This document shows, one piece after another, positions 6,098 to 51,083 of a stretch of 64,000 nt of DNA. Both the position numbers and the translations under genes were made by a program. Every line of letters begins with the position of its first letter. Position 1 is the stretch's first letter. The stretch comes from Candidatus Daviesbacteria bacterium (GTDB lineage Bacteria; Patescibacteriota; Microgenomatia; Daviesbacterales; UBA10151): contig JACPDA010000004.1 in NCBI GenBank assembly GCA_016184225.1, positions 602,763 to 666,762 on the forward strand, in the 5' to 3' direction. The notes under the pieces were generated by a model. The model did no database searches, was not told where the DNA came from, and saw only the letters and a program-made list of their open reading frames with translations.

Positions 6098-6322
6098 GTG
6101 AGAATTTTGCAAAATATAAAAGGAGCTATTGATCATCTTAAAACACACCAGACATACCCTGCTACCAAGGAAGACCTGGTGAAAGAGTGCAATGAACTAG
6201 CGGATTTCTCGGAAGATGATAAATCATGGTTTATGAAGACTCTTCCGGAGGGAACATATAATTCAGCAGATGATGTGATGGGAGCACTTGGGCTACATCA
6301 AGCTCAAGGTATGGCTATGTAG
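6098..6322 (+). CDS. DUF2795-family small protein
   Basis: YPATKEDLV and LPEGTYNSADDV motifs typical of DUF2795. AAGGGGG Shine-Dalgarno overlaps the GTG start; an alternative TTG lies at 6107. Confidence 0.55.
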   Translation: MRILQNIKGAIDHLKTHQTYPATKEDLVKECNELADFSEDDKSWFMKTLPEGTYNSADDVMGALGLHQAQGMAM

Positions 6323-6342
6323 AGAAGAAGCAAGGGTTCAGG

Positions 6343-6415
6343 CGCCCCTGGAAGGAATTGCACCCTCGACCCTTTCGTCCGAAGCGAAATGCTCTATCTA
6401 CTGAGCTACAGGGGC
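6343..6415 (-). tRNA. tRNA-Arg (anticodon TCG)
   Basis: Acceptor GCCCCTG/CAGGGGC, D-stem GCTC/GAGC, anticodon stem TTTCG/CGAAA with loop CTTCGGA. Confidence 0.85.
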
Positions 6416-7251
6416 ATGAGAGTATATTCTATCACTTTAAGGAGTTGCAGTGCCCCATATAAACCGCTGTCTTGATAAAGTGTAGCTTTGACTATTTCCG
6501 GAGCCTGCGGGAAAATTGTCAAGTATTCTTTAAGATAGAGTTGGACTTTTTCCAAAGGGAGAGATGCGGAAACACTGCCACCTAAGATTACGATGTCCGG
6601 GGACCAGTGAACAATTGTATTATTTAACCCTATTGCCAGATATTTTGAGATTTTATCCCAGATTGCCGGATCAGTTATATCTTCACCTTTTTGGTGATAC
6701 AGCATTGGAAAATATGTACCACTTACATATGCTTCCAGATGCCCCTTGCCGCCGCAATTACAAAGATTACCGTCAGCCACAATTATTTGATGCCCGGGTT
6801 CAAACCCTAGGCTGTTTTTGTCTATTTTTTGATCGACAATTCTGACTCCGCCTACACCAGTACCTATCCCAAGATAGGCTACAATGCTTTTTCCCCTCCC
6901 TGCCCCTTTGGTGGCTTCACCTAGTCCTACTAAGGCAGTGTCATTTTCTAGATGTACCACTACATTATAAGCTTTCTTAAGTTCTGTTTTTAGAGGTTTT
7001 TCAATCCAGTTAGGGAGTTGGGCGCTTGCTACCTGCATGGATTTCTCTTTATCCAAAGGTCCGGGTACACCACCTGCTACACCGGTGATTTTTTCTCCGC
7101 CCGACAACTCATCAGCAGTTTGTTTTAATACCAGGATGCCTTGGTTAAAATCTTGTGGAGTAGGAACGATTTTAGACTTTGTGATAGTTTCTCCGTCGTC
7201 TGAAACCCCTATCCGCATATTTGTCCCGCCGATATCAAACAAAAGAAGCAT
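6406..7251 (-). CDS. ROK-family glucokinase
   Basis: N-terminal LLFDIGGTNMRIG ATPase motif and the CNCGGKGHLE zinc motif of ROK sugar kinases. The stop codon lies inside the 5' end of tRNA-Arg. Confidence 0.75.
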   Translation of the reverse strand: MLLLFDIGGTNMRIGVSDDGETITKSKIVPTPQDFNQGILVLKQTADELSGGEKITGVAGGVPGPLDKEKSMQVASAQLPNWIEKPLKTELKKAYNVVVHLENDTALVGLGEATKGAGRGKSIVAYLGIGTGVGGVRIVDQKIDKNSLGFEPGHQIIVADGNLCNCGGKGHLEAYVSGTYFPMLYHQKGEDITDPAIWDKISKYLAIGLNNTIVHWSPDIVILGGSVSASLPLEKVQLYLKEYLTIFPQAPEIVKATLYQDSGLYGALQLLKVIEYTLMPL

Positions 7252-7360: not shown

Positions 7361-8605
7361 ATGAACAACCCCTTTAAAGTAGCACTTACCAACCTTGAGA
7401 TGGCCGGAAAAGCAGGCGGCATCAAGCAGGAAATAATCAACCTTTTATCTGTCCCCCAACGACAAATAGAAACCAATATTCCCTTAAAGCTTGATTCCGG
7501 AGAAATTAAACTGGTCAGGGGGTATCGGGTCCAATACAATAACTGGCGCGGTCCTTACAAAGGCGGATTAAGATACCACCCCGAGGTAGATTTAGATGAG
7601 GTGAAAGCTTTGGCATTTTGGATGACGATCAAGAATGCGGTGATCAATGTTCCTTTCGGAGGCGCTAAGGGGGGAATTGAAATTGATCCCAAGAAGCTGT
7701 CCCAAAAAGAGCTGGAACGGTTAACCCGAACTTTTGCCAGGAAACTGGCCCCTAATGTCGGCCCCAATGTAGATGTACCTGCCCCTGACGTAAATACCAA
7801 TTCCCAAACTATGGACTGGTTTGCCTCCGAATTCTCAAAAGTGATCGGGAAAAGCACGCCGGCTGTGGTAACGGGAAAATCAATTCCAAACGGAGGCTCG
7901 GAAGGCCGGATCGAGGCAACCGGTTTAGGCGGATTTTTTGTTCTGGAAGAGCTGGTTAAAAAACTGAAGCTAAAAACCCCCCTGAGGGTAGCTGTGCAGG
8001 GTTTTGGAAATGTCGGCTACCATATTGCCAAACTGCTTCAAGAAGCGGGATACAGGGTGGTTGCCTTATCTGATTCAAAAGGCGGCATCTATAATAAAGA
8101 CGGGCAGGGGTTTGACGTCGAGGATGTTAAAAATTATAAAGAAAAGAACGGCTCAATTTCGGAATACAGGCCTTCAAAAAATACAGTCAAAATAGCCAAT
8201 AAAGGAATGCCGCTGCTGCAGGTTGATATTTTTATCCCGGCAGCGCTGGAAAATGTCTTAACAGAAGAAAATGCGCCGCACATTAGTGCAAAGGTTATCC
8301 TGGAGATGGCTAATGGCCCGACAACTGATAAGGCCGACCAAATTCTGGATAAAAGAAAAATTTTGGTAGTACCGGATGTTTTAGCCAATGCCGGAGGAGT
8401 GACTGTCTCTTATTATGAATGGTATCAGAATATGAAAAACCAAATGTGGTCCAAAAAACAAGTTAATGCAAAACTTAAAAAAGCTATGGTCAACTCATTT
8501 GAGGAAATTTGGGAAATCTGCCGGACAAAAAAAATTTCCCTCCGGCTCGCTGCTTACATTTTGGCTTTACAAAGACTGTCCAAGGAAGCAACCCTTCTGT
8601 CCTAA
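7361..8605 (+). CDS. gdhA: Glu/Leu/Phe/Val dehydrogenase (glutamate dehydrogenase)
   Basis: GGAKGG catalytic-region motif and a C-terminal NAD(P)-binding GFGNVG. Confidence 0.85.
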   Translation: MNNPFKVALTNLEMAGKAGGIKQEIINLLSVPQRQIETNIPLKLDSGEIKLVRGYRVQYNNWRGPYKGGLRYHPEVDLDEVKALAFWMTIKNAVINVPFGGAKGGIEIDPKKLSQKELERLTRTFARKLAPNVGPNVDVPAPDVNTNSQTMDWFASEFSKVIGKSTPAVVTGKSIPNGGSEGRIEATGLGGFFVLEELVKKLKLKTPLRVAVQGFGNVGYHIAKLLQEAGYRVVALSDSKGGIYNKDGQGFDVEDVKNYKEKNGSISEYRPSKNTVKIANKGMPLLQVDIFIPAALENVLTEENAPHISAKVILEMANGPTTDKADQILDKRKILVVPDVLANAGGVTVSYYEWYQNMKNQMWSKKQVNAKLKKAMVNSFEEIWEICRTKKISLRLAAYILALQRLSKEATLLS

Positions 8606-8610
8606 ATTCC

Positions 8611-10446
8611 ATGAAGATTGATAAATTAAGCAAATTGGCAAAATTGTTAAGGTATTATATCCTGGTGTCTTCTTCCAGAGCCGGTTCAGGGCATCCGACT
8701 TCATCCTTGTCAGCTGTAGAGTTAATGGGGACACTGCTTTTTGGGGGCTTTTTTAGGTTTGACCTGAAAAACAAAAATAACCCCCTTAATGACCGGTTAA
8801 TCTTTTCCAAAGGCCATGCCTCTCCCCTTTATTATTCCCTTTTCACGGCGGCAGGTGCCATTACCAAAGCAGAACTCATGACTCTCCGGAAATTCGGCAG
8901 CAGATTAGAAGGCCACCCGACCATGGAATTTCCTTACACAGAGGTGCCAACAGGTTCCTTAGGCCAGGGTTTGTCAGCCGGTTTAGGCATGGCTTTGGTC
9001 AGCAAATACCTGGATAAAAGTAATTTCCGGACTTTTGTGCTCTTGGGGGATTCTGAAATGGCAGAAGGGTCTGTCTGGGAAGCTATACAGATAGCTGCTT
9101 TTTACAAGCTGGATAATTTAGTGGCCATCCTGGACGTAAACAGACTGGGACAAAGCCGGGAAACCATGCTCGGCCATGATGTTTCAAGCTACAAAAAAAA
9201 GCTGGAAGCCTTTGATTGGGAAGCAATTGTTATTGACGGCAATGACCTAAAACAGGTGACGGCGGCTTTTGAGAAAGCCTTAAAAGTGAAGGGTAAGCCG
9301 GTAATGATTATTGCCAAAACCTTTAAAGGCAGTGGTATATCATTTTTGGAAAATAAGGAAAACTGGCACGGCAAAGCCCTGGGTGAAAAGGATCTGAGTC
9401 TGGCATTGGGAGAATTGGGCCCGATAAATAAAAAGCTGCGCGGAAAAATTAATTTGCCCCGAAAGGCAGCTCTGAAAAAACAACCTGTCACCTATAACCT
9501 GAAACCTGTAACCTATTCCTTGGGCGAAACCATTGCCACCAGAAAAGCTTATGGTAATGCCCTAATTAGGCTGTTTCCCAAATACCCTGATATGGTAGTC
9601 CTGGACGGGGAAACCAGCAATTCTACTTACTCGGAATTTTTTGCCAAGGCGTATCCTGAGCATTTTTTTGAGATGTTTATTGCCGAACAAAACATGACCG
9701 GGGTGGCTCTTGGCCTGGCCAGGCTGGGTAAAATTCCCTTTATTTCCACTTTTGCCGCCTTTTTTACCAGAGCATATGATCAGATCAGAATGGCCCAATA
9801 TGCTGATACCAATATCAAGTTTTGCGGATCCCATGCCGGAGTATCTATCGGTGAGGACGGTTCCTCCCAAATGGGATTGGAGGATATCGGAATGTTCCGA
9901 TCGCTTTTGGGGAGCGTGGTGTTATACCCTGCTGATGCTGTATCCTGCGAAAAGCTGACTGAGGAAGCTATCAAGCATAAAGGAGTGGTTTATTTGAGAA
10001 CCACCAGGAAAGAAACACCGACTCTTTATAAAGCCAATGAAAAATTCCCCATAGGAGGCAGCAAGGTGGTTCGCAAAAGTAAGTCAGATCAGGTGACAGT
10101 GGTAGGGGCCGGCATTACGCTGCATGAAGCCTTAAAAGCCTATGACCTACTGAAAGCTAAAGGTATCTCCATCCGGGTCATTGATTTGTATTCTGTTGCC
10201 CCACTGGATTTAAAAACTTTAAAGCAGGCTGCTAAGGAAACAATGGCTGTTATTACTGTTGAAGATCATCATGCGGCAGGGGGAATAGGGGAAGCTGTGG
10301 CAGCTGCGCTGTCAGGAACAGGAAAGCCGGTACACATTATGGCAGTTACCAAAATGCCGCATAGCGGCAAGCCGGATGAGCTGCTGGAATATGAAGGTAT
10401 CTCTGCATCAGCTATTTACTCTAAAGTAAAAAAAGTGATAGTGTAA
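8611..10446 (+). CDS. tkt: transketolase
   Basis: Thiamine-diphosphate motifs (SSRAGSGHPTSSLS, GDSEMAEG) and pyrimidine-binding and C-terminal domains. ATG at 8611 follows the gdh stop directly; the longer ORF from 8509 overlaps gdh. Confidence 0.85.
   Translation: MKIDKLSKLAKLLRYYILVSSSRAGSGHPTSSLSAVELMGTLLFGGFFRFDLKNKNNPLNDRLIFSKGHASPLYYSLFTAAGAITKAELMTLRKFGSRLEGHPTMEFPYTEVPTGSLGQGLSAGLGMALVSKYLDKSNFRTFVLLGDSEMAEGSVWEAIQIAAFYKLDNLVAILDVNRLGQSRETMLGHDVSSYKKKLEAFDWEAIVIDGNDLKQVTAAFEKALKVKGKPVMIIAKTFKGSGISFLENKENWHGKALGEKDLSLALGELGPINKKLRGKINLPRKAALKKQPVTYNLKPVTYSLGETIATRKAYGNALIRLFPKYPDMVVLDGETSNSTYSEFFAKAYPEHFFEMFIAEQNMTGVALGLARLGKIPFISTFAAFFTRAYDQIRMAQYADTNIKFCGSHAGVSIGEDGSSQMGLEDIGMFRSLLGSVVLYPADAVSCEKLTEEAIKHKGVVYLRTTRKETPTLYKANEKFPIGGSKVVRKSKSDQVTVVGAGITLHEALKAYDLLKAKGISIRVIDLYSVAPLDLKTLKQAAKETMAVITVEDHHAAGGIGEAVAAALSGTGKPVHIMAVTKMPHSGKPDELLEYEGISASAIYSKVKKVIV
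9484..9518 (+). repeat. 5 tandem heptamers CCTGTAA-like, in frame in tkt
   Basis: cctgtca cctataa cctgaaa cctgtaa cctattc. Encodes the tandem 7-aa repeat QPVTYNL KPVTYSL. Confidence 0.7.
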
Positions 10447-14463: not shown

Positions 14464-14718
14464 ATGGCTAATGAGAAAAAAGGCTTAAATCCCTTGGCAA
14501 CAGGTGTGGCCGGGGCTATTATTGGAGCGGCGGCTGCCGCTGCGGCAATAGCGCTGTCAGATGAGAAAAACAGAAAAAAAGTTGAAGGTGTTTTAGGAAG
14601 CCTGCAAAAACAAGGAGATAGCGTCTTAAAGGAAATTACTAAAAAGGCAATGGAGCTCAAAGACGCGGTGGGTAAGAATGCCAGGGGAGTTAGAAAATTA
14701 AGCGGCAAAAAGAAGTAA
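14464..14718 (+). CDS. YtxH-like small stress protein (glycine-zipper TM plus coiled coil)
   Basis: GAIIGAAAAAAAIALS glycine-zipper helix followed by a charged helical tail. AGGAGG Shine-Dalgarno upstream. Confidence 0.4.
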   Translation: MANEKKGLNPLATGVAGAIIGAAAAAAAIALSDEKNRKKVEGVLGSLQKQGDSVLKEITKKAMELKDAVGKNARGVRKLSGKKK

Positions 14719-15714
14719 AGTGGCTCGGATTAATTCATCCAGGGATTTGGTTTTCATTAATCTTTCCCGGTTTTCGGATGCGTTGCTGTAGTTGTTGATA
14801 TAACATTTAACAAACTTTTTCATCAGTTCAAAATGTTTGCTGTCACCCCAAGTCTTTTTAAAAAGATTGAGGTGATTAATTAGTAAATCTACTCTTTGTT
14901 GTGGGGTAACCTTTTCAATATCAACAGCGTCGTTAAACAGCCAGATATTGTTAAAGATTCCCCGGCCAATCATCACTCCGTCAATGCCGTATTTTTTACA
15001 CTTATCACTGGCTTCTTTGCGGCTTTTTACATCCCCGTTGCCTATGATTAAGGCTTTGGATTTAAGCTTGTTGCGGATTTCCACTGCTTTGCTGATTTCT
15101 TCCCAATGAGCCGGGACTTTGGACATCTCCCGGGTTGTCCGAAGGTGTAAAATTAAAGCTGAAATAGGAGTTTGGAGCAGGGTAGTTACCCAGTTCTCAG
15201 TGTCCAAACTACCAAAGCCAATCCTGGTTTTAACGCTAACAGGAAGATTATTGGCTCCCCTGATGGTGGCTTCAATAATTTCTGTGGCCAGCTCAGGGTT
15301 TTTAATTAAGGCAGCACAAGCCCCTTTTTTAATGGTATTTCTGTCCGGACAGCCCATATTGATATCAATACCGTCAAATTTCATTTTCTGAAGCATTTGA
15401 GCCACCTGATAGAATTTCTCCGGATCAGTTCCCCAAATTTGGGCTACAATCGGCCGCTCTACTTCTGTAAACTTTAAAGATCGTAAAATTTTCTCGTGAC
15501 CCGAAGAGAGCAGGGCATCAACCGGCACAAATTCGGTGAAGAACACATGAGGTTTACCCCGCCCGCTACGCAAGCCAGCTTGCTGGCGTTGCGGGCAGGC
15601 CACAGACACCACAATTTGTCTAAAGACAGTATCAGTGACTCCTTCCATAGGAGCCAGGATAAAAATAGGTTTTTGTAACTTCCCCCAAAAATTCATTGTT
15701 AAATTATACAGCAA
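14698..15714 (-). CDS. dus: tRNA-dihydrouridine synthase
   Basis: LAPMEGVTDTVFR, the catalytic Cys region (INMGCP) and TIM-barrel Dus pattern. Confidence 0.8.
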   Translation of the reverse strand: MLYNLTMNFWGKLQKPIFILAPMEGVTDTVFRQIVVSVACPQRQQAGLRSGRGKPHVFFTEFVPVDALLSSGHEKILRSLKFTEVERPIVAQIWGTDPEKFYQVAQMLQKMKFDGIDINMGCPDRNTIKKGACAALIKNPELATEIIEATIRGANNLPVSVKTRIGFGSLDTENWVTTLLQTPISALILHLRTTREMSKVPAHWEEISKAVEIRNKLKSKALIIGNGDVKSRKEASDKCKKYGIDGVMIGRGIFNNIWLFNDAVDIEKVTPQQRVDLLINHLNLFKKTWGDSKHFELMKKFVKCYINNYSNASENRERLMKTKSLDELIRATLLLFAA

Positions 15715-18565: not shown

Positions 18566-18623
18566 ATAGACTCAAAGTCTACCACATACAGCTTTCGCTC
18601 ACAAATACATATTACTTCGTACT

Positions 18624-19298
18624 TTAGCCTTCCACACCGGGTGTGGAATCGTAAACGTCATCCAGTTGGTGATGCTTAAGTATTTCTAGCTCCATTCCAT
18701 AATCCACCTGAGCTATTACGAATTTTTCGTAGTCTTTTGAATTTTTAAATAACCCCAAAACTATATCTGGAACACATATTATTGGTTTTATTAAATATTC
18801 CTGATAAGAAGACCAAGGGTATTTGTCTATACTTTTAATTAGTTTAGAAACTACCGGATTTAGATGGATATACCGGGATACGTGTACTAATTGTTCATCA
18901 TTTTCAATCCTAACGGCCTTAAACCTATTTTGCCATAACGGACCAACCCGGTTATATTTAGTATTGAAATACTTAGAATAACTATTACAAAACTGCTGAA
19001 TAAAACGACTAGCCCCATTATCTTGTAATTGCCTGATCAAGAAGTGAAAATGGTTGGGCATAAGGCAATATCCGATAATTTCAACATATTTCTTGTCGGA
19101 AATTGGTTTTGAAAAATTTAATTTTGCTTTGCTAAAAAAAGAGAACTTGGGCTTCTTGCCGGAAAACTGATAATAGTAAAATGTTTTTCTGAAACGGTCA
19201 TAATCTCTTGGCTGAAGAAAAATATCTCGCTTTTCACTTCCTCTGTTAAAAAGGTGGTAAATCTCTCCTGTTATAATTGGTGATGTTCTTCCGGGCAT
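18624..19298 (-). CDS. tnpA: IS200/RAYT-like Y1 tyrosine transposase
   Basis: YCLMPNHFHFLI HuH motif and the downstream catalytic Tyr region (VSRYIHLNPV). Paralog of the 43244..43915 gene. The true start is probably M53 (MPGRTSPIITGEIYHLFNRG); the longer ORF to 19454 runs through the terminal hairpin. Confidence 0.7.
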   Translation of the reverse strand: MPGRTSPIITGEIYHLFNRGSEKRDIFLQPRDYDRFRKTFYYYQFSGKKPKFSFFSKAKLNFSKPISDKKYVEIIGYCLMPNHFHFLIRQLQDNGASRFIQQFCNSYSKYFNTKYNRVGPLWQNRFKAVRIENDEQLVHVSRYIHLNPVVSKLIKSIDKYPWSSYQEYLIKPIICVPDIVLGLFKNSKDYEKFVIAQVDYGMELEILKHHQLDDVYDSTPGVEG

Positions 19299-19345
19299 AT
19301 CTTCTACTTTAGCTTTCCACACCCGAGGTGTCAACCTATGGCCCT
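18628..19345 (-). mobile_element. IS200-like insertion sequence (about 720 bp, single Y1 transposase, subterminal hairpins)
   Basis: Hairpin TTCCACAC-CGG-GTGTGGAA at 18630-18648 and TTCCACACCCGAGGTGTCAACCT at 19315-19340, in the same orientation, flank tnpA. The size matches IS200. Confidence 0.5.
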
Positions 19346-19346
19346 C

Positions 19347-19368
19347 TAAAAAAGCCCCTTGCGGGGCT
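19347..19368 (-). terminator. rho-independent terminator after the GH5-like gene
   Basis: Minus strand reads AGCCCC-GCAA-GGGGCT followed by TTTTTT. Confidence 0.55.
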
Positions 19369-19512
19369 TCCTTAGAGAACCTGTCAATATCGGTCTTGCG
19401 ACTGATAAAGAAACTTTTTGTCTTACGACTGAAGTTTTTAACAGGTTTAATCACTTTACATCAGCGAATATACTCTGTCAACTGGGACAAAACGGATCAA
19501 AATATAGCAAAA

Positions 19513-21378
19513 TTACTGGGAAAAGGGCAGCAGTTTCCAGAATTCAGCGGGGTGTAGGATAGCTGAAAGCAGATCAGGTTGCAATGTTCCAAAATCCAGA
19601 TCATTAACTCCTGTATAAACTTTTTGGTTTAAGGTTTTAGGTTTATAGAAAGGCTTTTCCAGGGAAAATTCAAAGGGATAATCAGGTAACAGATACCTGG
19701 CTTCTATCTCGCCGGAGATCCCTTGCTTATTTAAAGTAATGCTTTGTGCGCTTTCCCCGCTTACCCCCTTAACCTTCAGAGTGTAAGTACCTGTAAAGTC
19801 CCTCTTCCACCCCAGCGCGCCTATAATTTTTAAGATGACTGGTGATTTCACTTCAGTTGTAAAACGTAGCGGTTTGGATTCAAATTGTTTGCCCCCTATA
19901 AATAAATTTAAGGAGACTTCGTATGTTCCGCTTTCCGGGGCTTTTAATTTCAGGTTAAAAGTATGCTCTCCTCCCGGTTCTATTTTTTTGTCTTTTGGCA
20001 AGCTGACACTATCAATCCCCAGTTCACGGCCGCCTGCAAGGGGAACCAATTTTACCTGTTCTGCATCATTCCAAATGGATTGGCCCGTGTTTTTAAAAGT
20101 TAAGGAAATTATATAGGTTTCTCCCATTACTATAGAACTATATATTTCACCTTTTGTCAGACTTGCCTTTGTTTCCTGGAGCGGTTCTCCGGCCACCTTT
20201 GGCAAATCCATTATTGTTTGATACATGGAATAATACTCCGGATACTGAACACCTAAAATCCTGATATCGGGTAGTTTTTCCTTTTGTTTCTCTCCGGTTA
20301 TTTTCTTAAAAGAGAAATGATCAAAAGGAGCCTCCTGATAGCTTAGTAAGAAAGGGGTGACTGCAACAATTCTGTCAAGATTCCAGGCATTTTCAAAGGC
20401 TTTTTGCAAATTCACAGATACAGTATCAGCATCAGGTAATTTCGGATCGTAGTTAATTCCTTCCGCATGTTTCCAGCCGGTTTCGGTAATAAATATGGGT
20501 AGCTTTTTATTGACCCCAAGATTTTTGAGCTGCTCCATCTCCCAGACATAAGTCCTGACGGTTCCGCGGCCACTGGCATCAGGTGACCCGGCAAATTCCG
20601 GATTAGGATAAGAGTGTGATGTCCAACCGTCCAGCTTTTCGAAAATACCAGGCACGGCTTCCTCCATTAACCTCATAAAAGTGACCTGATCTTCGTACTT
20701 AGGCGCCTTCGGAGGAGCAGAGGCATCAAAACCGCCGTTGAGTACAAAAAAGTCTCTATTTTTGTTTTTTAGCGCTGTAATAGTCCGATCCAGCACTTTT
20801 GCATAATCTTTAGCGTCAACATTATTTCCCCATTCGCTGGCATGATTGGGTTCGTTATAAACAATTACATAACGGTTTTTAGTGGGCCAGATTAAGGCAT
20901 CTAAAAAATCAGCCCAAGCCTCCTCTTCCCCCTCGTAAGGCCTTTTCCAGTAGTTACCTTCCGGTTGGGTAGCTAACCTAACAATGGGGATTAAGTGCCG
21001 GCGGCGCAGGTCATTAAAAAACTCCTGCCATTTATTATGATCTCTGTCCTTACTCTCGACCAAAACTGTAATGTAGCCCCAGTCGCCGTGAGTATTAACG
21101 AGTGAAGCGGCAGGTGAAGATTCGTCGGGAGTAGCCTGGAGGATGTGAATACCGAAGCGGTTGTTCGGGACAGAAAGAGGATCGGTAATGGCATAGGTAG
21201 GGAACAGGGTACAGGGGACAGTGAACAGGAAAAACAAGAGCGCAATAATACTGTAACCTGTAACCTTCAACCTGTAACCTCTCTCTTGACCTTTGGGTTT
21301 ATTTCGGGTAATAATGGATATTATGTTAGAAATAGAGGAACCTATTAATGTTTGGGTCTTTTTTAAAAGTAACCTCAT
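19513..21378 (-). CDS. secreted glycoside hydrolase, GH5-like (beta/alpha)8 with C-terminal Ig-like region
   Basis: N-terminal TM/signal. VIVYNEPNH (NEP acid/base) and FITETGW (nucleophile Glu) motifs typical of GH5-type clan GH-A. Beta-rich C-terminus. Confidence 0.5.
   Translation of the reverse strand: MRLLLKKTQTLIGSSISNIISIITRNKPKGQERGYRLKVTGYSIIALLFFLFTVPCTLFPTYAITDPLSVPNNRFGIHILQATPDESSPAASLVNTHGDWGYITVLVESKDRDHNKWQEFFNDLRRRHLIPIVRLATQPEGNYWKRPYEGEEEAWADFLDALIWPTKNRYVIVYNEPNHASEWGNNVDAKDYAKVLDRTITALKNKNRDFFVLNGGFDASAPPKAPKYEDQVTFMRLMEEAVPGIFEKLDGWTSHSYPNPEFAGSPDASGRGTVRTYVWEMEQLKNLGVNKKLPIFITETGWKHAEGINYDPKLPDADTVSVNLQKAFENAWNLDRIVAVTPFLLSYQEAPFDHFSFKKITGEKQKEKLPDIRILGVQYPEYYSMYQTIMDLPKVAGEPLQETKASLTKGEIYSSIVMGETYIISLTFKNTGQSIWNDAEQVKLVPLAGGRELGIDSVSLPKDKKIEPGGEHTFNLKLKAPESGTYEVSLNLFIGGKQFESKPLRFTTEVKSPVILKIIGALGWKRDFTGTYTLKVKGVSGESAQSITLNKQGISGEIEARYLLPDYPFEFSLEKPFYKPKTLNQKVYTGVNDLDFGTLQPDLLSAILHPAEFWKLLPFSQ
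21251..21285. repeat. CCTGTAA heptamer array (4-5 units), in frame in the GH5-like gene N-terminus
   Basis: ctgtaac ctgtaac cttcaac ctgtaac. Same unit and DNA orientation as the tkt array but read on the opposite coding strand (GYRLKVTGYS). Confidence 0.7.
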
Positions 21379-21560
21379 ACAGCCTTACTCCTTTTTCTGG
21401 CACGGTAGAGAAATTAAAATAGATAAAATCAATTTAGTCCACACTTCCCGAAACGGTTCTTCGCTATTTTACCATTTTTCCGTAATGTCGGGAGGAAACT
21501 TTTACAGATTGAGGCTTGACACTAATAGAATGCGTTGGATACTGGAGGCAGTTGAAGAGG

Positions 21561-21635
21561 GATAGCTATCAGTCATCAGTCTTCAGCTCTCAGACTAAAA
21601 ATAAATCTGACGACTGAAAGCTGACAGCTGACGAC
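21561..21635 (+). repeat. bipartite heptad-repeat element A (TATCAGY x4, A-rich spacer, TGACGAC x4), ending 4 nt before the dinB ATG
   Basis: tatcagt catcagt cttcagc tctcagac + taaaaataaa + tctgacgac tgaaagc tgacagc tgacgac. Shares tcagtcttcagct with the copy inside gatD. Confidence 0.65.
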
Positions 21636-21639
21636 TACT

Positions 21640-23097
21640 ATGCGAAGCATACTACATATTGACTTCAATTCTTATTTTGCTTCTGTTGAACAACAGGCAA
21701 ATCCCCGGCTGCGGGGTAAACCAATTGGTGTTACAGGTGGGGATAGGATGCACAGGACAGTTTTGGGTGCAGCTTCAATAGAAGCCAAAAGGTTTGGTGT
21801 TAAAACCGGGATGCAGATTTGGGAAGCCAGGAAGCTTTGTCCACAAATTATCCTGGTGCCAGGAGATTCGGATAAGTATTTGGAGATAACTAAACGCTTT
21901 TTAAGTATTTTAAAAGACTACAGCCCTGCCCGCATTGCTTCGTCCACCAGTAACGCTTCGCGTAACGATGCGGACTGGCAAAGCGATGCAGGCGGGCCAT
22001 ATTTGGAGGTTTTTTCTATTGATGAATGTTTTTTAGAATTGGTGAATACTTCAGTCGGCAGCCCCGCTCTCTTGCTCGCTAACGCAAGCGTCCTGCGGTC
22101 CGATATGGATCGGACCTCGGATACGCTCGTCTTCGACTCGTCTAGAGCTTGCTGCGTTCGGAGGCAGCCTCCTTCTGCTACAGAGATTGCTTTTGATATT
22201 AAAAGTAGAATCCGGACTGAAATAGGCGAATACATTACCTGTTCTATTGGCATCTCTTACAATAAACTGATGGCCAAACTGGCTGGATCTTTACAAAAGC
22301 CTGATGGTCTGGTAATCATTCCCAACCAGGAAGAGGCGATTAAAGTTTTAGACAAAATAGAACTGGATGAAATTTGCGGCATCGGGCCAAGGATTAAGAA
22401 AAGGTTAAACAACTTAGGAGTATTTAATTTTTACCAGCTAAGGCAAGTTCCTTTAGAAAGCTTACTGGCTGCCTTTAAAAGCTATGGTCAGATCCTTTAT
22501 AACATGGCCAGGGGTATTGACCATTCACCTGTAGTGCCTTTTTACCAAAAAGAAGAAGTAAAAAGTATCGGTCACAGACATACTATAGATCATGATACTG
22601 CCGACCCAAAAGAGATAAAACAAATTCTACTCAAACTGTCTGAGATGGTAGCCAGAAGACTCAGGGCTAAAAGATTGGTTGGCAAAACCATCCATTGCTG
22701 GTATCGGGAAGCATTCTACTCCCGATTCCACCTGGAAGGTGAAAAAATGCAGCTACACCTTCCAGGTGAGTTTAATGGTAACAGCATGCAAATGACTATT
22801 CTCTATACCAATGATGGTTTGGATATCTTTAAAGCTGCCTGGAAAATTTTTCATCAGATCTGGAATACGGAAAAAATTAGGATGGTTGGTATCTCCATCT
22901 CCAACCTTAAACCCCAAACCCCGCAAAATTTAAGTTTTTTGCCTGAAGAGCAAAGAAAAGAGATAATCACCAAAGCTTTGGATAAAATTAATGACAGATA
23001 CGGTGAATTTACCCTGCAACGCGGCATCCTGCTTCAATCTGCTTCCATCAAAAGAAAGCCCAACCCCTTCCTAGCTGACAGAAGATTCAGACTTTAG
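21640..23097 (+). CDS. dinB: DNA polymerase IV (Y-family) with two GC-rich in-frame insertions
   Basis: ILHIDFNSYFASVEQ, FSIDECFLEL, SIGISYNKLMAKLA and C-terminal little-finger motifs. 485 aa, against about 350-400 typical. Confidence 0.8.
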   Translation: MRSILHIDFNSYFASVEQQANPRLRGKPIGVTGGDRMHRTVLGAASIEAKRFGVKTGMQIWEARKLCPQIILVPGDSDKYLEITKRFLSILKDYSPARIASSTSNASRNDADWQSDAGGPYLEVFSIDECFLELVNTSVGSPALLLANASVLRSDMDRTSDTLVFDSSRACCVRRQPPSATEIAFDIKSRIRTEIGEYITCSIGISYNKLMAKLAGSLQKPDGLVIIPNQEEAIKVLDKIELDEICGIGPRIKKRLNNLGVFNFYQLRQVPLESLLAAFKSYGQILYNMARGIDHSPVVPFYQKEEVKSIGHRHTIDHDTADPKEIKQILLKLSEMVARRLRAKRLVGKTIHCWYREAFYSRFHLEGEKMQLHLPGEFNGNSMQMTILYTNDGLDIFKAAWKIFHQIWNTEKIRMVGISISNLKPQTPQNLSFLPEEQRKEIITKALDKINDRYGEFTLQRGILLQSASIKRKPNPFLADRRFRL

Positions 23098-23114
23098 TGT
23101 GATATCATTAAACC

Positions 23115-24065
23115 ATGAGAATTATTGTTACCGGCGGAGCCGGATTTTTAGGTTCACACCTTTGCGACAAGTTAATTGAAAGAGGAGACCAGGTAATTGC
23201 CATAGACAACTTGTTAACCGGCAGTCCAAACAATATAGCCCATTTGCAAAACAGCCCTGACTTCCAGTTTATAGAAGCTGATGCTAACGCAGCTTTGCCC
23301 GAGGATCTGGATTTTGATCAACTTTACCACTTAGCTTCCCCTGCCTCCCCTAATAAAAATAACGCTCAAAGCTATATGGCTTTGCCTTTTGAAACCATGC
23401 AGGTAAATTCCTTTGGAACCTGGAGTCTGTGTGAAGAAGCCCTTGCCCGGGGGGCTAAGTTTCTATTTGCTTCTACCTCTGAAACTTACGGTGACCCCCT
23501 GGAACACCCTCAAAAAGAAAGCTATCGGGGCAATGTTTCTACCACCGGCCCCAGGTCTGTTTATGATGAATCCAAAAGATTCGGCGAAACTATCACTTCT
23601 GCTTTTATCCGCCATCAAAGGTTGGACGGCAAGATGGTCCGGATTTTTAACACCTATGGACCCAGGATGTCTTCTGACGGCAGGGTGGTGATTGAATTTG
23701 TTCGGGCAGCCCTACAAAATAAGCGCTTCCCTGTATTTGGTGACGGCAAACAAACCAGATCTTTCTGCTATGTGTCTGACTTGGTAGACGGGATCATAAC
23801 CGTTATGGATAAGGGTGAGAAAGGTGAGGTATACAACCTGGGAAACCCCAAAGAATTTACAATTTTGGAACTGGCTGAGGTTGTAAAAAAGCTAACAGGG
23901 GCGAATTCGGAAGCTGAATTTGTGGAGAACTTGCCGGAGGATGACCCGGCCCGGCGCTGCCCAGATATTACTAAAGCCAGAGGATTGGGCTGGGAGCCTA
24001 AAATAGGGCTGGAAGAGGGTTTAAAGAAATTAATTGTACATCTGCAAACAATGAAGACACCCTAG
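23115..24065 (+). CDS. NAD-dependent epimerase/dehydratase, UDP-glucuronate decarboxylase (UXS)-like
   Basis: TGGAGFLGSHL Rossmann motif, YDESKR (YxxxK) and extended-SDR layout similar to UXS/ArnA-type decarboxylases. Confidence 0.7.
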   Translation: MRIIVTGGAGFLGSHLCDKLIERGDQVIAIDNLLTGSPNNIAHLQNSPDFQFIEADANAALPEDLDFDQLYHLASPASPNKNNAQSYMALPFETMQVNSFGTWSLCEEALARGAKFLFASTSETYGDPLEHPQKESYRGNVSTTGPRSVYDESKRFGETITSAFIRHQRLDGKMVRIFNTYGPRMSSDGRVVIEFVRAALQNKRFPVFGDGKQTRSFCYVSDLVDGIITVMDKGEKGEVYNLGNPKEFTILELAEVVKKLTGANSEAEFVENLPEDDPARRCPDITKARGLGWEPKIGLEEGLKKLIVHLQTMKTP

Positions 24066-24189
24066 GTGACTGCCTAATCCACCCCCCAGGTGAATTTTGC
24101 TAAATAGATCTCAAATTGATAGAATACTCACAGTTGCACATTGACATCTGAACTGGCAAATAATGTATACTAATTGCATAGGTCTTAAT

Positions 24190-24909
24190 ATGAGAGTTAG
24201 GTTAAATGAAAGAATATTGGCACGGCAACTGAGGGAACAAGGACTCAGTTTTAGTGAAATCATGCAAAAAATTCCAAATCTTTCTAAAGGTACTCTTAAT
24301 GGATGGCTTAAAGGGGTTGAGTTATCTGAAAACCAAAAACAGAGATTATTTGCAAGGATTAAGGATGGAGCCACAAAAGGACGGCTTAAGGGAGCTTTTA
24401 CGAATCATCAAAGGAGGATGGAGATTACTTTTGAGATTATTAATAGTGCTAAGAAGGAAGTTGTAGAAAGAATTATGAATCCCCTTTTTACAATGGGAGT
24501 TATGCTTTATTGGGCAGAGGGGGATAAGTCTCAGGAACGGGTTGGTTTTACAAACGCTGACCCCACTATGATTCAGTTCATAATGAAATGGTTTAGGGAA
24601 GTTTGTGGAACGAGTGAAGAGAAGTTTAGGGTCGCCTTAAGTATTATGACTTTACACGACAAAAACGCATCAGAGAAATTTTGGTCAGAAATTACCGGAA
24701 TACCCTTAAGTAGGTTTAATAAAACACGGATTAAACAAACACTTCTAAGGGGTAAAAGAAACCCCTCTTATATGGGGACGTGTAGAATAGTTATTTCTGA
24801 TAAGAATTTATTCAGGAAGATAATGGGCTGGAAGATGGGAATTATAGAAAACTTTAAAATATTTGCCCCCGTGGCTCAACGGATAGAGCAAGTGAATTCT
24901 AATCACTAG
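24190..24909 (+). CDS. HTH-domain hypothetical protein (possible LAGLIDADG-like motif LYWAEGDKS)
   Basis: ILARQLREQGLSFSEIMQKI helix-turn-helix. The longer ORF starts at 24163 but a TTGACA-17-TGTATACT promoter overlaps that ATG, so M10 at 24190 is more likely. The 3' end runs into tRNA-Arg. Confidence 0.4.
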   Translation: MRVRLNERILARQLREQGLSFSEIMQKIPNLSKGTLNGWLKGVELSENQKQRLFARIKDGATKGRLKGAFTNHQRRMEITFEIINSAKKEVVERIMNPLFTMGVMLYWAEGDKSQERVGFTNADPTMIQFIMKWFREVCGTSEEKFRVALSIMTLHDKNASEKFWSEITGIPLSRFNKTRIKQTLLRGKRNPSYMGTCRIVISDKNLFRKIMGWKMGIIENFKIFAPVAQRIEQVNSNH

Positions 24910-24937
24910 GTTGGGGGTTCGAATCCCTCCGGGGGCG
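24865..24937 (+). tRNA. tRNA-Arg (anticodon TCT)
   Basis: Acceptor GCCCCCG/CGGGGGC, D-stem GCTC/GAGC, anticodon stem AGTGA/TCACT with loop ATTCTAA, T-arm GGGGGTTCGAATCCCTC. Confidence 0.8.
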
Positions 24938-25485: not shown

Positions 25486-25504
25486 TCTAAAGTCCTGATT
25501 ACAT

Positions 25505-25527
25505 GATTACACCCTTGGGGTGTAATC
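25505..25527. repeat. REP-like hairpin GATTACACCC-TTG-GGGTGTAATC
   Basis: Same family as 31978-32000 and 35808-35834. Confidence 0.7.
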
Positions 25528-25537
25528 CTAGCATTTG

Positions 25538-25554
25538 ATCCCTCCGGGGGCGCA
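25538..25554 (+). repeat. 17-bp direct repeat copy 2 (ATCCCTCCGGGGGCGCA)
   Basis: Exact repeat of the tRNA-Arg 3' end, 615 bp downstream. attL/attR-like. Confidence 0.7.
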
Positions 25555-25573
25555 GATTTTGGGTTCTAAGAAA

Positions 25574-25617
25574 GGGTGTCAACCTAATACACCCTCCGGG
25601 TGTAAAGCTGTAAAGCT
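25574..25617. repeat. REP-like element GGGTGTCAACCTAATACACCCTCCGGGTGTAAAGCTGTAAAGCT
   Basis: Near-identical to the right end of the IS200-like element at 43949-43985. Confidence 0.7.
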
Positions 25618-32951: not shown

Positions 32952-33592
32952 TGCTTTATCCAAATCTTAAATTCCCAAAACGAACAGACAGGCCCTTTTT
33001 TTACACTAATTTTGTTTCCACTGTTGACGGTAAGGTTCAAGTTTTAGAAAACACTATGGATTACTGGCCAATAGGGAGCAAGACCGATTACAAGGTCATG
33101 CTGGAGCTACGGGCATACGCCGATTGCCTTATCCATGGTAAAAATTTAGCTAAGGAATTTGGTGAAATTACCCTAAATAGCTTAAATAAAAATTCTTTTA
33201 AAAAGATGCGGCAGAAGCTAGGAAAGGATCCCATCCTGCCATACTTTATCTTATCCGGCAAGCCTGAAACATTAGAAAAGTCCCTAGGTGCCAAGCTAAT
33301 CCACCTCCCAGGTGGGAATCTGCAAGAATTGGTCAAACTTCTCCAGGAAAAAAAGTACAAACATATTTTAGTAGAAGGGGGACCAACACTACTGGGCTCC
33401 TTCTTAAAAGAAAACCTCATTGATGAAATATTTTTAACAATTGCCCCAAAAATATTTGGCAGCACTAGGGGAATAACATTAACCCTGGTTGAAGGCTATT
33501 TATTCCCCAAAAATGCCACTAAAAACCTAAGCCTTCTATCAATAAAAAAGCTCAGTTCCGAAATTTACTTACGTTACAAAGTAAGAAAGTAA
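32948..33592 (+). CDS. RibD C-terminal / dihydrofolate-reductase-family protein
   Basis: FFYTNFVSTVDGKV, ILVEGGPTLLGSFL and DEIFLTIAPKIFG pattern of the DHFR-like reductase domain. Confidence 0.55.
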   Translation: MMLYPNLKFPKRTDRPFFYTNFVSTVDGKVQVLENTMDYWPIGSKTDYKVMLELRAYADCLIHGKNLAKEFGEITLNSLNKNSFKKMRQKLGKDPILPYFILSGKPETLEKSLGAKLIHLPGGNLQELVKLLQEKKYKHILVEGGPTLLGSFLKENLIDEIFLTIAPKIFGSTRGITLTLVEGYLFPKNATKNLSLLSIKKLSSEIYLRYKVRK

Positions 33593-36940: not shown

Positions 36941-36992
36941 CCTACGGTGTGTGGGTATCCCACACCAGGGGTGGGTTAGGTTGACACCGTAC
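36941..36992. repeat. REP-like element in reverse orientation between convergent genes
   Basis: GTGTGGGTATCCCACAC hairpin plus GGTGGGTTAGGTTGACACC, the reverse complement of GGTGTCAACCTAA. Confidence 0.6.
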
Positions 36993-43156: not shown

Positions 43157-43186
43157 TAGAATTCTTATCCCGTGAAGTCTTAATTT

Positions 43187-43995
43187 AGGTTTACACCCGG
43201 AGGGTGGTATAGCTTTACACCTGTTCTTTCATTCATTAAAATATCATTCAAAAGTTAGATGCTTGATAGCTTCCAACTGTTTCCCATAGTCTATTTGATT
43301 ATTAACAAATTCCTGATAGGCTTTTATTGTTTTGAACATGCTCAAAATTAAATCTGTCTGCGATATTTCCAGGTTGGATAAAGATAAATATTCCGGATAG
43401 GATGACCACTGATAACTCTCCAGCTTATCATCCGGTATCACACCGGAAGCCACCGGGTTTAGGTGGATGTACCTGGAGACATGAACCAGCTGCTCATCAC
43501 TTTCAATATGAACCGCCTTAAAAACACCCTCAAATAAGGGCCCTGTTCTTTCATATTTGGTATTAAAATATTTAGTATAAGCGTTTGTAATATTGGAGAT
43601 AAAAGAGGAGATCCCTTTATCTGTGTTTTGTTTAAGCATAAAATGGAAATGGTTGGGCATCAGGCAGTAACTTAGGATATCTACCGCTCTTTCACTCTTA
43701 TAAAGAGCAGCCAGTAACTTCTCTCTGATCTCTTCAGGTTGCTGGATAACCTGGGAAAACCTGACCGGGATATCCTTGTGCCTATAGAATTTGACCAGCT
43801 TCTGCATCCTTTCAAATTCTCTTTTTTCCGTAAATGTAGTCCTTCTTTCTATTCCTCTATTAAATATATGATAGATCTCGCCCTCTCGAAACACCAACTT
43901 TCTAAGTGTGGCCATAAATATATCTTAAACATAATAGAGAAAGGGTGTCAACCTAAAACACCCGGAGGGTGTATGGGTGGGTGTATGGGTAATAG
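43187..43995 (-). mobile_element. IS200-like insertion sequence (about 810 bp) with subterminal hairpins
   Basis: TTTACACCCGGAGGGTGGTA at 43191-43210 and GGGTGTCAACCTAAAACACCCGGAGGGTGTATGG at 43949-43982 flank a single Y1 transposase gene in the same orientation. Confidence 0.55.
43244..43915 (-). CDS. tnpA: IS200/RAYT-like Y1 tyrosine transposase
   Basis: YCLMPNHFHFML HuH motif and the downstream catalytic Tyr region (VSRYIHLNPV). Strong similarity to the 18624..19298 paralog. Confidence 0.75.
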   Translation of the reverse strand: MATLRKLVFREGEIYHIFNRGIERRTTFTEKREFERMQKLVKFYRHKDIPVRFSQVIQQPEEIREKLLAALYKSERAVDILSYCLMPNHFHFMLKQNTDKGISSFISNITNAYTKYFNTKYERTGPLFEGVFKAVHIESDEQLVHVSRYIHLNPVASGVIPDDKLESYQWSSYPEYLSLSNLEISQTDLILSMFKTIKAYQEFVNNQIDYGKQLEAIKHLTFE

Positions 43996-50600: not shown

Positions 50601-50939
50601 TTAAAGTTTTTTTAATAAATCCAATTTACCAATTATCAAAGCTTCTTTTTTAGCTTTTGTCCATTTCTTTAGCTGAAATTCTCTTCTCATAGCTTCAATC
50701 CTTGTTGGGTACTCTTCAGAATAAACAAGATTGAATGATTCAAAGTACTTGATATATTTTGCAGATTTAGTGGTTTTATTTTTATGCTCGATTAGTCTTT
50801 TTTCTAGATTATTTGTTTGTCCAATGTAAAGAGTGTTTGAAGAGGTTCTAAGGATATAAACTGCGTATTTTCCCTTCGATTCACTTCGTGGTTCGATTTC
50901 TCTCACCACTCGTTCACTCAGGGCCTTCGACCTAATCAT
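50601..50939 (-). CDS. GIY-YIG nuclease-family protein
   Basis: YAVYILRTSSNTLYIGQTNNLEKRLIEH contains the GIY..YIG..R..H motif. Confidence 0.7.
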   Translation of the reverse strand: MIRSKALSERVVREIEPRSESKGKYAVYILRTSSNTLYIGQTNNLEKRLIEHKNKTTKSAKYIKYFESFNLVYSEEYPTRIEAMRREFQLKKWTKAKKEALIIGKLDLLKKL

Positions 50940-51010
50940 AATCTAAGTATATTATAGTTATGATGGCCATGGCCCTGAGCGAGGTCAATTTATTGAACTT
51001 AGTCGAAGGG

Positions 51011-51083
51011 CTGCCGGGCTAGGATTCGAACCTAGAAATCATCTGTTCCAAAGACAGAGGTCCTACCATTAGACGACCCGGCA
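51011..51083 (-). tRNA. tRNA-Gln (anticodon TTG)
   Basis: Acceptor TGCCGGG/CCCGGCA, anticodon stem TCTGT/ACAGA with loop CTTTGGA, T-stem CTAGG/CCTAG. Confidence 0.8.

Follow-up and report, generated by a model that had tools for sequence, protein, structure and literature searches.

The dinB locus and its inserts

The subject of this analysis is dinB, the gene for DNA polymerase IV, in a Candidatus Daviesbacteria bacterium, an ultrasmall, AT-rich member of the candidate phyla radiation (CPR). The window, that is, the whole stretch of DNA that was analyzed, comprises 64,000 nucleotides (64 kb; positions 602,763 to 666,762 of contig JACPDA010000004.1, assembly GCA_016184225.1). Within dinB lie two segments rich in guanine and cytosine (GC), referred to as insert 1 and insert 2, and a third hairpin in the region encoding the little-finger domain, referred to as the site-3 element. 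The loop that holds insert 2 is called site 2, and the one that holds the third hairpin site 3. These features, together with related repeats and neighboring genes, are listed in Table 1.

Table 1. Features of the window, with positions counted from its first letter
Feature	Position	Strand	Remarks
dinB (DNA polymerase IV, Y family)	21640-23097	+	485 aa; host of the inserts; catalytic D8, D128 and E129 intact
Insert 1, CCTGCCCGCATTGCTTCG...CAAAGCGATGCAGGCGGG	21925-21996		GC-rich nested palindrome; 72 nt, 24 codons, aa 96-119
Insert 2	22068-22178		GC-rich segment in the site-2 hypervariable loop after the catalytic strand; 111 nt, 37 codons
Site-3 element	22714-22768	- (reverse relative to dinB)	About 54 nt, in frame, little-finger domain; aa ~359-376, FYSRFHLEGEKMQLHLPGE
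Short relative of insert 1, GGCCTGCCCGCAACGC...GCGTAGCGGGCGGGG	15556-15599	-	About 44 nt, in frame in the Dus gene, peptide ACPQRQQAGLRSGRG
Short hairpins, GGTGTCAACCTA + CACC..GGTG	18623-18655, 19308-19339, 24056-24096, 25499-25613, 33282-33314, 36943-36991, 43186-43221, 43938-43974, 61576-61621		
RAYT-like Y1 (HUH) transposase gene 1	18624-19454	-	Likely start ATG 19287; Pfam Y1_Tnp 46.3 bits (cutoff 23)
RAYT-like Y1 transposase gene 2	43244-43915	-	47% identical to gene 1 (tblastn); Pfam Y1_Tnp 40 bits
Heptad-repeat hairpin, (CAGTCWT)n ... (CTGACGA)n	21564-21636		Intergenic, stops 3 nt upstream of the dinB ATG
Second heptad-type hairpin	63064-63150		In frame in a GatD-like amidotransferase gene, peptide VIQSSAISYQLSDRKQKKSDDRRLTTDDF
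Dus (tRNA-dihydrouridine synthase) open reading frame	14698-15714	-	Pfam 179 bits
Heptad-like inverted repeat	53832-53940		
CAACTAC x4	61980-62019		In frame in MurT
621-aa open reading frame	19513-21378	-	GGTTACA heptads in its N-terminus, about 21200-21290
Single-domain GIY-YIG gene	50619-50873	-	Pfam 62.6 bits
Hairpin preceding the GIY-YIG gene	50914-50982		Distinct from the other hairpins
tRNA	51011-51083	-	GIY-YIG gene directly downstream
248-aa open reading frame	24163-24909	+	No Pfam match
tRNA	24865-24937		Overlapped by the 3' end of the 248-aa frame

The product of dinB is a Y-family polymerase IV with the IMS palm/finger, thumb and C-terminal little finger (Pfam IMS 120 bits, IMS_C 79 bits, IMS_HHH_1 39 bits), and its three catalytic residues are invariant in an alignment of 114 orthologs. 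Among solved structures the best match is 7yll (E 1.5e-52); the similarity is broken at residues 97-180, the catalytic FSIDE strand excepted. Foldseek with an AlphaFold2 model of the protein retrieves DinB, Dpo4, Pol kappa and Rev1. The protein is identical to the NCBI protein HYU45_03475, whose gene lies on a contig of 769,731 bp. Positions 21585-23424 of the window recur with zero mismatches in a Logan assembly made independently from run SRR12113432. An assembly artefact was therefore rejected as the source of the inserts.

The inserts were examined against several sets of relatives. The protein alignment contained the 120 closest homologs (the gene itself and 119 others, 62-74% identical, 384-485 aa); locus L004 (P0013) served as the insert-free reference ortholog for comparison at the DNA level; loop inserts were counted over the 114 orthologs; and DNA-level tests of frame and folding were made over 25 intact Daviesbacteria dinB loci recovered by tblastn. 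Insert 1 is missing from all 119 other close homologs, and both GC-rich inserts are missing from canonical DinB and from most orthologs; no ortholog set was found in which the same segments occur with ordinary composition. Without its inserts, dinB has a GC content of 40.4%, against 62.5% in insert 1 and 59.5% in insert 2, which fall, respectively, in the top 0.39% and the top 0.29% of windows of the same length in the 64 kb. Sixty-nucleotide windows of at least 58% GC are otherwise common there, so composition alone is unexceptional and it is the combination with gaps in the alignment that matters.

The alignment with L004 and the GC content confirm the original prediction, which was made from the sequence alone, in its claim of two GC-rich in-frame segments, although their estimated sizes of about 25 and 42 residues come out as exactly 24 and 37 codons. 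The palindromes that it listed (the ends of insert 1 and three hairpins in insert 2) are all present. Its description of both segments as chains of consecutive hairpins needs correction, since insert 1 is a single nested 72-nt hairpin; insert 2 contains three short ones. The heptad-repeat element that it placed at the dinB ATG exists as well, but ends short of the start codon, and the site-3 element, a third in-frame hairpin, had been missed.

Insert 1 and its family

Insert 1 encodes the peptide PARIASSTSNASRNDADWQSDAGG, which stands between codon S95 and a P codon. Its arms are CCTGCCCGCATTGCTTCG and CAAAGCGATGCAGGCGGG, and its minimum free energy is -37.3 kcal/mol (z -4.3), a stability reached by 0 of 200 shuffled sequences; of all 80-nt windows in the 64 kb, the most stable one falls in this insert. 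Comparison of the dinB junction, ACAGC/element/CCATAT, with the unbroken ACAGCCCATAT of L004 shows that exactly 72 nt have been added, with a 2-nt ambiguity (CC) and no target-site duplication.

Relatives of insert 1 were sought in metagenomes with a degenerate two-arm pattern, in which the outer arms are preset and therefore carry no evidential weight. The pattern led to five metagenome loci, L085 to L089, whose palindromes align with insert 1 over their full 72-73 nt at about 90% identity. Four transition asymmetries between the arms are common to all of them, and four pairs in the inner stems have undergone compensatory changes. The five loci represent three independent contexts beyond dinB, or four with dinB included. 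L085, L087 and L088 are one orthologous locus, AT-rich (34% GC), in which the element is intergenic; L086 has a GC content of 59.5%, and a neighboring protein there clusters with a protein from a Lentisphaerae metagenome-assembled genome; and L089 is a 105-kb contig of 41% GC.

The L089 contig contains a 23-nt duplicate of the tRNA-Gln 5' end, which the 72-nt palindrome interrupts; the intact tRNA-Gln copy lies 330 nt downstream. The junction, GGGATCG/element/TCTAATGG, differs from the intact tRNA-Gln by exactly 72 added nucleotides, again with no target-site duplication, so that the two filled-versus-empty sites of this family reveal no target duplication beyond the 2-nt ambiguity in dinB. 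The L089 copy ends 15 nt upstream of a gene for a 79-aa single-domain GIY-YIG protein (Pfam 59 bits), an arrangement found in this one of the four contexts. That GIY-YIG gene lies between the 23-nt duplicate and the intact tRNA-Gln (7682-8096 of the contig), as if a GIY-YIG cassette had integrated into the tRNA gene and the palindrome had later split the duplicate. No RAYT-like gene (REP-associated tyrosine transposase, where REP stands for repetitive extragenic palindrome) was found near the metagenomic copies.

Shorter relatives also occur. The palindrome in the Dus gene of the window, which lies near the N-terminus of the encoded protein, was recognized by its fold, by a pattern census and, weakly (19.5 bits), by R1, the covariance model of the insert-1 family; it is likely an insertion relative to Dus homologs. 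Further 36-44-nt relatives that start with GGCCTGCCCGCAACGC are present in the dinB orthologs L002 and L012 (36 nt, at other positions) and in L015. Insert 1 is thus a repeat with copies at several unrelated loci, namely in four contexts besides the short relatives. In members of its family, 5 or 6 of the 6 reading frames are open, so that such GC-rich palindromes would rarely break genes.

Insert 2 and the site-2 loop

The three short hairpins of insert 2 are CTTGC-TCGCTAAC-GCAAG (22071-22088), GGTCCGAT-ATGG-ATCGGACC with a perfect 8-bp stem (22097-22116), and GGAGGC-A-GCCTCC (22160-22172). At the edges of the insert is an imperfect 14-nt direct repeat, GGCAGCCCCGCTCT (22057-22070) and GGCAGCCTCCTTCT (22163-22176), identical at 11 of 14 positions.

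A single relative of insert 2 is known, which L001 (P0020) carries at the corresponding place in dinB; the two are 74% identical over 128 nt, and in their shared core, CTTGCTCGCYAACGCAAGCGTCCTGCGG, 27 of 28 nucleotides are identical. The host genes, in contrast, are 46% identical at third codon positions, which is near saturation. Indels of 1 nt and 10 nt put the intervening stretch out of frame, so that it reads LLLANASVLR in one of the two copies and SLARQRKRPA in the other. As the DNA has been kept while the frame differs, it is the DNA and not the peptide that has been inherited or constrained. The pair L002 and L007 shows the same contrast, with inserts that are 87-88% identical and third codon positions that are 47% identical. 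Membership of insert 2 in the GGGGTCCTGCCAGC...GCTGTCACCCC family (L002, L007, L021 and L022) was considered and rejected, the alignment giving no convincing homology.

Site 2 is a hotspot, where 41 of the 114 orthologs have at least 15 extra residues. The inserts found there belong to several unrelated hairpin families, and when these families are mapped on a neighbor-joining tree of the core alignment columns, 43 changes are needed, as compared with 42.5 for shuffled labels, which suggests fast turnover. Outside Daviesbacteria, site 2 of L032 (Patescibacteria group bacterium) holds a palindromic insert of low complexity (..NWNLKFVSNLGFSASDF..), with a second insert near residue 35, and the dinB of the GC-rich L044 has a long insert in the thumb region.

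The site-3 element, its repeat family and the RAYT-like genes

The site-3 element adds 18 codons in the beta-hairpin loop of the little finger. Its hairpin has perfect 13-bp arms (22729-22741 and 22756-22768; z -4.7). This position is the second hotspot of the gene: at least 15 extra residues are present in 44 of the 114 orthologs and at least 8 in 84, the remaining 30 having fewer than 8.

The element is a member of a short GGTGT..CACC hairpin family with at least 8 copies in the window, and its architecture is that of the window copies at 33287 and 43210; the site-3 inserts of orthologs likewise match other loci of the window by BLAST. The family is tagged by the 12-mer GGTGTCAACCTA, which is followed by a CACC...GGTG hairpin. 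This tag occurs in 4 exact copies in the window, where 0.008 would be expected, and in 14 copies when up to two mismatches are allowed (3.3 expected). Two copies are in frame within genes, one in MurT (61576-61621, peptide HGVSLSHPWGGMNRHL) and one in the gene for a RibD_C protein (33282-33314, peptide SLGAKLIHLPGG).

Copies of this family also flank the two RAYT-like genes. Gene 1 stands between the tag-bearing hairpins 18623-18655 and 19308-19339, and gene 2 between 43186-43221 and 43938-43974, which are inverted relative to each other. The layout of a REP/REPIN-RAYT system, a Y1 gene flanked by a dispersed repeat family, is therefore found for the short site-3 family only. Against NCBIfam model NF047646 (REP-associated tyrosine transposase), gene 1 scores 69.4 bits, under the curated cutoff of 80. 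Gene 1 is a candidate mobilizer of the site-3 family, and both RAYT-like genes are tied to that short family only.

Frame, folding and position across orthologs

The three inserts of the window (72, 111 and about 54 nt) are in frame and free of stop codons; insert 1 is absent from the other 119 homologs, and sites 2 and 3 vary among orthologs. The same regularity of frame extends to relatives, in that all site-2 and site-3 inserts of the 25 intact loci are multiples of 3 and stop-free. Over these loci the mean fold z is -2.26 at site 2 and -2.76 at site 3, while the value for control segments taken from these genes is 0.05 +/- 0.97. Besides the two hotspots there are about 10 positions with an insert in 1-5 orthologs each, encoding small GC-rich hairpin peptides, which is the picture to be expected if insertion is widespread and persistence occurs mainly in permissive loops. 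The element classes seen in and just upstream of dinB are also in frame in the MurT, GatD-like, RibD_C and Dus genes of the window.

In the AlphaFold2 prediction of the protein (114 aligned sequences), the core is confident, with a mean predicted local distance difference test score (pLDDT) of 76.6. The three inserts are predicted as coil with pLDDT below 50 between confident elements (residues 99-117, 140-173 and 365-377); the remaining stretches below 50 are residues 311-314 and 459-461 and the C-terminal tail. By this prediction alone, the inserts are placed at positions compatible with the fold, in surface loops.

One further ortholog, in L025, is disrupted by a frameshift or deletion with the loss of about 17 codons after GVKT (about 6160-6200), and is either a pseudogene or an assembly error; the disruption lies outside the inserts. 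Downstream of dinB in the same locus, an epimerase gene contains an in-frame half-element (SEILRRFTPRDDI; 8770-8810).

Interpretation

We consider it likely that the two GC-rich segments and the third hairpin are small non-autonomous palindromic repeats that landed in dinB and survived in permissive loops when they were in frame. Such elements would insert more or less anywhere in the genome; in a gene that is still needed, the survivors would be those that measure a multiple of 3 nt, have no stop codon and lie in a structurally permissive surface loop. In dinB these conditions would have been satisfied in the loop before the catalytic strand, in the variable loop after it and in the beta-hairpin loop of the little finger, and the extra 24, 37 and 18 codons would be translated as disordered loops, a tolerated rather than a useful addition. 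The added residues would be functionally neutral, with selection acting as a survivorship filter, and gain, loss and replacement would be fast at the two hotspot loops. Movement probably proceeds via a single-stranded hairpin intermediate, either by the "peel and paste" of Y1/HUH enzymes or by a related nuclease-driven route; such an intermediate is proposed because no target duplication was seen.

Insert 1 and the site-3 element are members of repeat families, and the family of insert 1, its exact boundaries and the contrast between DNA and frame conservation in insert 2 support the earlier idea of inserted palindromic DNA that keeps the frame. For insert 2, mobility would follow from analogy, from its composition and from that same contrast.

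Several observations weigh against this interpretation. The search for the inserted DNA elsewhere, which the original prediction had called for, succeeded for insert 1 in metagenomes, while no copy of insert 2 is known beyond the dinB site, where L001 shares it. Neither the covariance model nor BLAST revealed a second full-length copy of either insert in the window or in 44 related loci, where the 44-nt palindrome in the Dus gene was the only relative; model R1 recovered its seed copies and a few weak short relatives, and BLASTN-short with both inserts gave no match longer than 12 nt in the window. When the concatenated six-frame peptides of inserts 1 and 2 were used as a query on 5.8 billion proteins, the gene itself was the only match; HMMER, run exhaustively with the in-frame insert-1 peptide on 1.84 billion representatives, retrieved a single low-complexity protein that is unrelated; and pattern scans of IMG/VR for the two inserts gave 0 matches. 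Given that neither a full-length copy nor a peptide match was found, the copy number of the inserts in this genome may be low. Insert 2 as a whole folds only weakly beyond chance (z -1.5 on the plus strand, -2.9 on the minus strand). The neighbor-joining tree may lack resolution, in which case turnover at site 2 would be overestimated. The RAYT-like genes have hairpins of the site-3 family at their flanks and not hairpins of the GC-rich families, and no mobilizer is tied to inserts 1 and 2. Finally, the translation of the inserts is inferred.

Comparison with known systems

The closest parallel is that of the Rickettsia palindromic elements (RPEs), which have been known since 2000 as selfish palindromes tolerated in frame in housekeeping genes (PMC10969869). 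In both cases, palindromic repeats are in frame in unrelated housekeeping genes, missing from orthologs and at positions compatible with the fold, and several families occur per genome. The inserts may thus be said to work like RPEs (described families RPE-1 to RPE-10) rather than to be RPEs. There are differences as well. The inserts in dinB measure 72 and 111 nt, and the small ones 36-55 nt, whereas RPEs measure about 100-150 nt; they are GC-rich and reside in a CPR bacterium with an AT-rich genome; the family of insert 1 is spread across phyla; and two loops of one gene have been recolonized by different families. RPEs are, moreover, described as encoding a conserved peptide, whereas the insert-2 homologs are read in different frames and their peptide is not conserved.

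REP/REPIN-RAYT systems (PMC3116915, PMC3337134, PMC3733652) share with the present elements short, imperfect, dispersed palindromes and the lack of target duplication. The Y1 (HUH) genes of the window are flanked by repeats, with the inverted arrangement around 43244-43915 being the classical layout, and the dinB site-3 hairpin belongs to the family that flanks them. However, REPs are extragenic by definition, while the elements described here lie in frame within genes; inserts 1 and 2 are not the flanking repeats and have no GTAG or CGTC head; and the RAYT score of 69 lies below the cutoff of 80 bits, with two diverged transposase copies in the 64 kb.

A third system is that of the NTS/SRM hairpins, which Chenal et al. 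(2025) described as single-stranded DNA (ssDNA) targets of single-domain GIY-YIG nucleases (Ssn) that are often flanked by their own repeats (PMC11893778). These, too, are hairpin repeats of 20-50 nt with an oriented flank, found in many phyla and often beside a small GIY-YIG gene. Of the 28 positions in the NTS consensus, 23-24 are matched by the site-2 elements of L006, L009, L010 and L025 and by the site-3 element of L007, some of which form inverted doublets; these elements mostly fail the strict SRM search sequence. In L006, site 2 holds two different tandem elements (6340-6458), of which one is NTS-like and the other is half of a GTCATTGCGAG-type element, and in L007 the NTS-like element lies at site 3 and not at site 2 (6955-7056). 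Inserts 1 and 2, by contrast, do not match the NTS consensus, and the SRM search sequence, HGTCWYN(0-2)YYVSBRHN(0-5)WNVSBRGN(0-2)RNCYNB, has 0 matches in the window and none in either insert, for which reason they were not classified as SRMs. NTS repeats are, in addition, described around genes and not as translated within them.

Classical MITEs (miniature transposable elements bounded by inverted repeats), among them Correia, ERIC and the Anabaena MITEs fused in frame to open reading frames (PMC10969869), are likewise small, non-autonomous and repeated, with inverted-repeat ends and occasional in-frame copies within genes. The elements described here differ in that no related autonomous insertion sequence was identified and that the element is all hairpin, where a MITE has terminal inverted repeats around a core. 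Since the two well-defined insertion events, in dinB and in L089, left no target-site duplication, a classical MITE identity was ruled out for the insert-1 family; the imperfect direct repeat at the edges of insert 2 could be such a duplication.

GTCATT...AATGAC elements do not occur in the window, nor do VIARSE.., VIPAKAGIQ.. and ..LAMT, which are peptide signatures of such repeats. No Rfam family matches positions 21500-22850 at E values up to 10, apart from two chance miRNA-like matches on the heptad hairpin. In the library searched we found no paper on in-frame palindromic repeats, on REP/RAYT systems or on these consensus sequences in CPR bacteria, the study of Ssn and NTS (PMC11893778) being the single lead of relevance.

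Alternative explanations

The best surviving alternative, though in our view an improbable one, is that the hairpins are selected cis-acting structures, which either pace or limit the translation of an error-prone polymerase as part of its mRNA or serve as ssDNA nuclease sites that modulate recombination or transformation near dinB. For the second role there is a precedent in Neisseria, where NTS repeats are recognition sites for the nuclease SsnA and modulate these processes (PMC11893778). Selection would fit the finding that element DNA is conserved far beyond what the third codon positions of the host genes show, the compensatory pairs in the insert-1 family and the repeated occupation of two dinB loops; the family-B elements that relatives carry in the corresponding dinB loop, which approach the NTS consensus (PMC11893778), and the insert-1-family copy that abuts a single-domain GIY-YIG gene point the same way. 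On the other hand, members of these families are found at unrelated sites, both intergenic and genic; a given loop holds unrelated elements in different orthologs, or is empty, and no phylogenetic signal is seen; insert 1 is confined to one lineage; and the published SRM search sequence is unmatched in the window. The conservation of the DNA is explained equally well by recent insertion or by constraint from the transposition machinery.

Still less probable is an ordinary lineage-specific expansion of loops by slippage or duplication, with the added sequence evolving as coding DNA and the hairpins and GC content being incidental. Site 2 is a variable loop across Y-family polymerases, and human Pol kappa has a long disordered insertion there; insert 2, with no copy elsewhere and a weak global fold, could be accommodated in this way. 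Yet insert 1 shares about 90% identity with palindromes that lie between genes in unrelated genomes, by which an expansion is already largely refuted for that insert; the homologous copies of insert 2 keep their DNA and not their frame; the insert hairpin z-scores over the 25 loci lie more than 2 standard deviations off the controls; and the GC content of the inserts is 20 points above that of the gene.

Hardly any weight can be given to the idea that the inserts are intervening sequences, removed by RNA splicing, translational bypassing or as mini-inteins to leave a canonical DinB. The segments are compact and strongly structured, with sharp bounds at conserved residues, and CPR bacteria are known for insertions in their rRNA genes. 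Removal before translation, however, would not need the inserts to be in frame and stop-free, and the uniform frame of the site-2 and site-3 inserts would not be expected under it; 72 and 111 nt are far too short for group I or group II introns, and the inserted peptides are below intein length (no formal intein-motif scan was made). Introns and inteins were rejected on size, frame statistics and the Rfam result.

Equally negligible in our judgment is that the palindromes are de novo products of template switching at the site itself (quasipalindrome formation in the course of replication or repair): the 10-nt difference from L001 at the center of insert 2 does yield the perfect 8-bp palindrome GGTCCGAT-ATGG-ATCGGACC, a change of the sort that template switching makes, but both arms of every insert are missing from insert-free orthologs, so that there is no local template, and insert 1 fits a pre-existing family elsewhere, which refutes such an origin for the whole of insert 1 and leaves room for it only in small internal corrections.

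Other repeats and neighboring genes

The intergenic heptad hairpin upstream of dinB was delimited by inverted repeats (I1-I4) and a lag-7 scan, and its fold z is -3.6; the Logan contig of SRR12113432 breaks within it. Heptad repeats occur elsewhere in the window as well (Table 1).

Small GIY-YIG genes beside tRNAs, such as the one in the window, are also found in the dinB neighborhoods of L007, L017, L021 and L030. Downstream of dinB, the product of the 248-aa open reading frame has a LYWAEGDK motif, which we presume to be reminiscent of LAGLIDADG endonucleases.

Significance for CPR proteins and genomes

Proteins of CPR bacteria (Patescibacteria) are often longer or oddly interrupted in comparison with their homologs, usually without explanation. 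The tracing of three length differences in one conserved enzyme to hairpin repeats provides a concrete mechanism for such variation in protein length, and it is a caution for annotators and structure predictors that loops of this kind are repeat DNA and not functional domains. As in-frame selfish palindromes, the inserts extend a behavior known from Rickettsia and do not represent a new principle.

The insert-1 family, whose palindromes cross phyla, also offers cleanly resolved pairs of filled and empty sites, so that its mobilizer, whether Y1/RAYT-like or GIY-YIG/Ssn-like, can now be searched for by experiment. A more far-reaching proposal, which we put forward tentatively and regard as rather unlikely, is that the 72-nt palindrome may be the cognate ssDNA hairpin of a small nuclease (Ssn-like GIY-YIG or Y1), spreading across phyla without target duplication, repeatedly recolonizing the same loops of CPR housekeeping genes such as dinB and placing nuclease sites in coding DNA. 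If this were true, variation in protein length in the reduced genomes of CPR bacteria would have a major, hitherto undescribed source in such hairpins, and control over recombination or transformation would be placed inside coding sequence.

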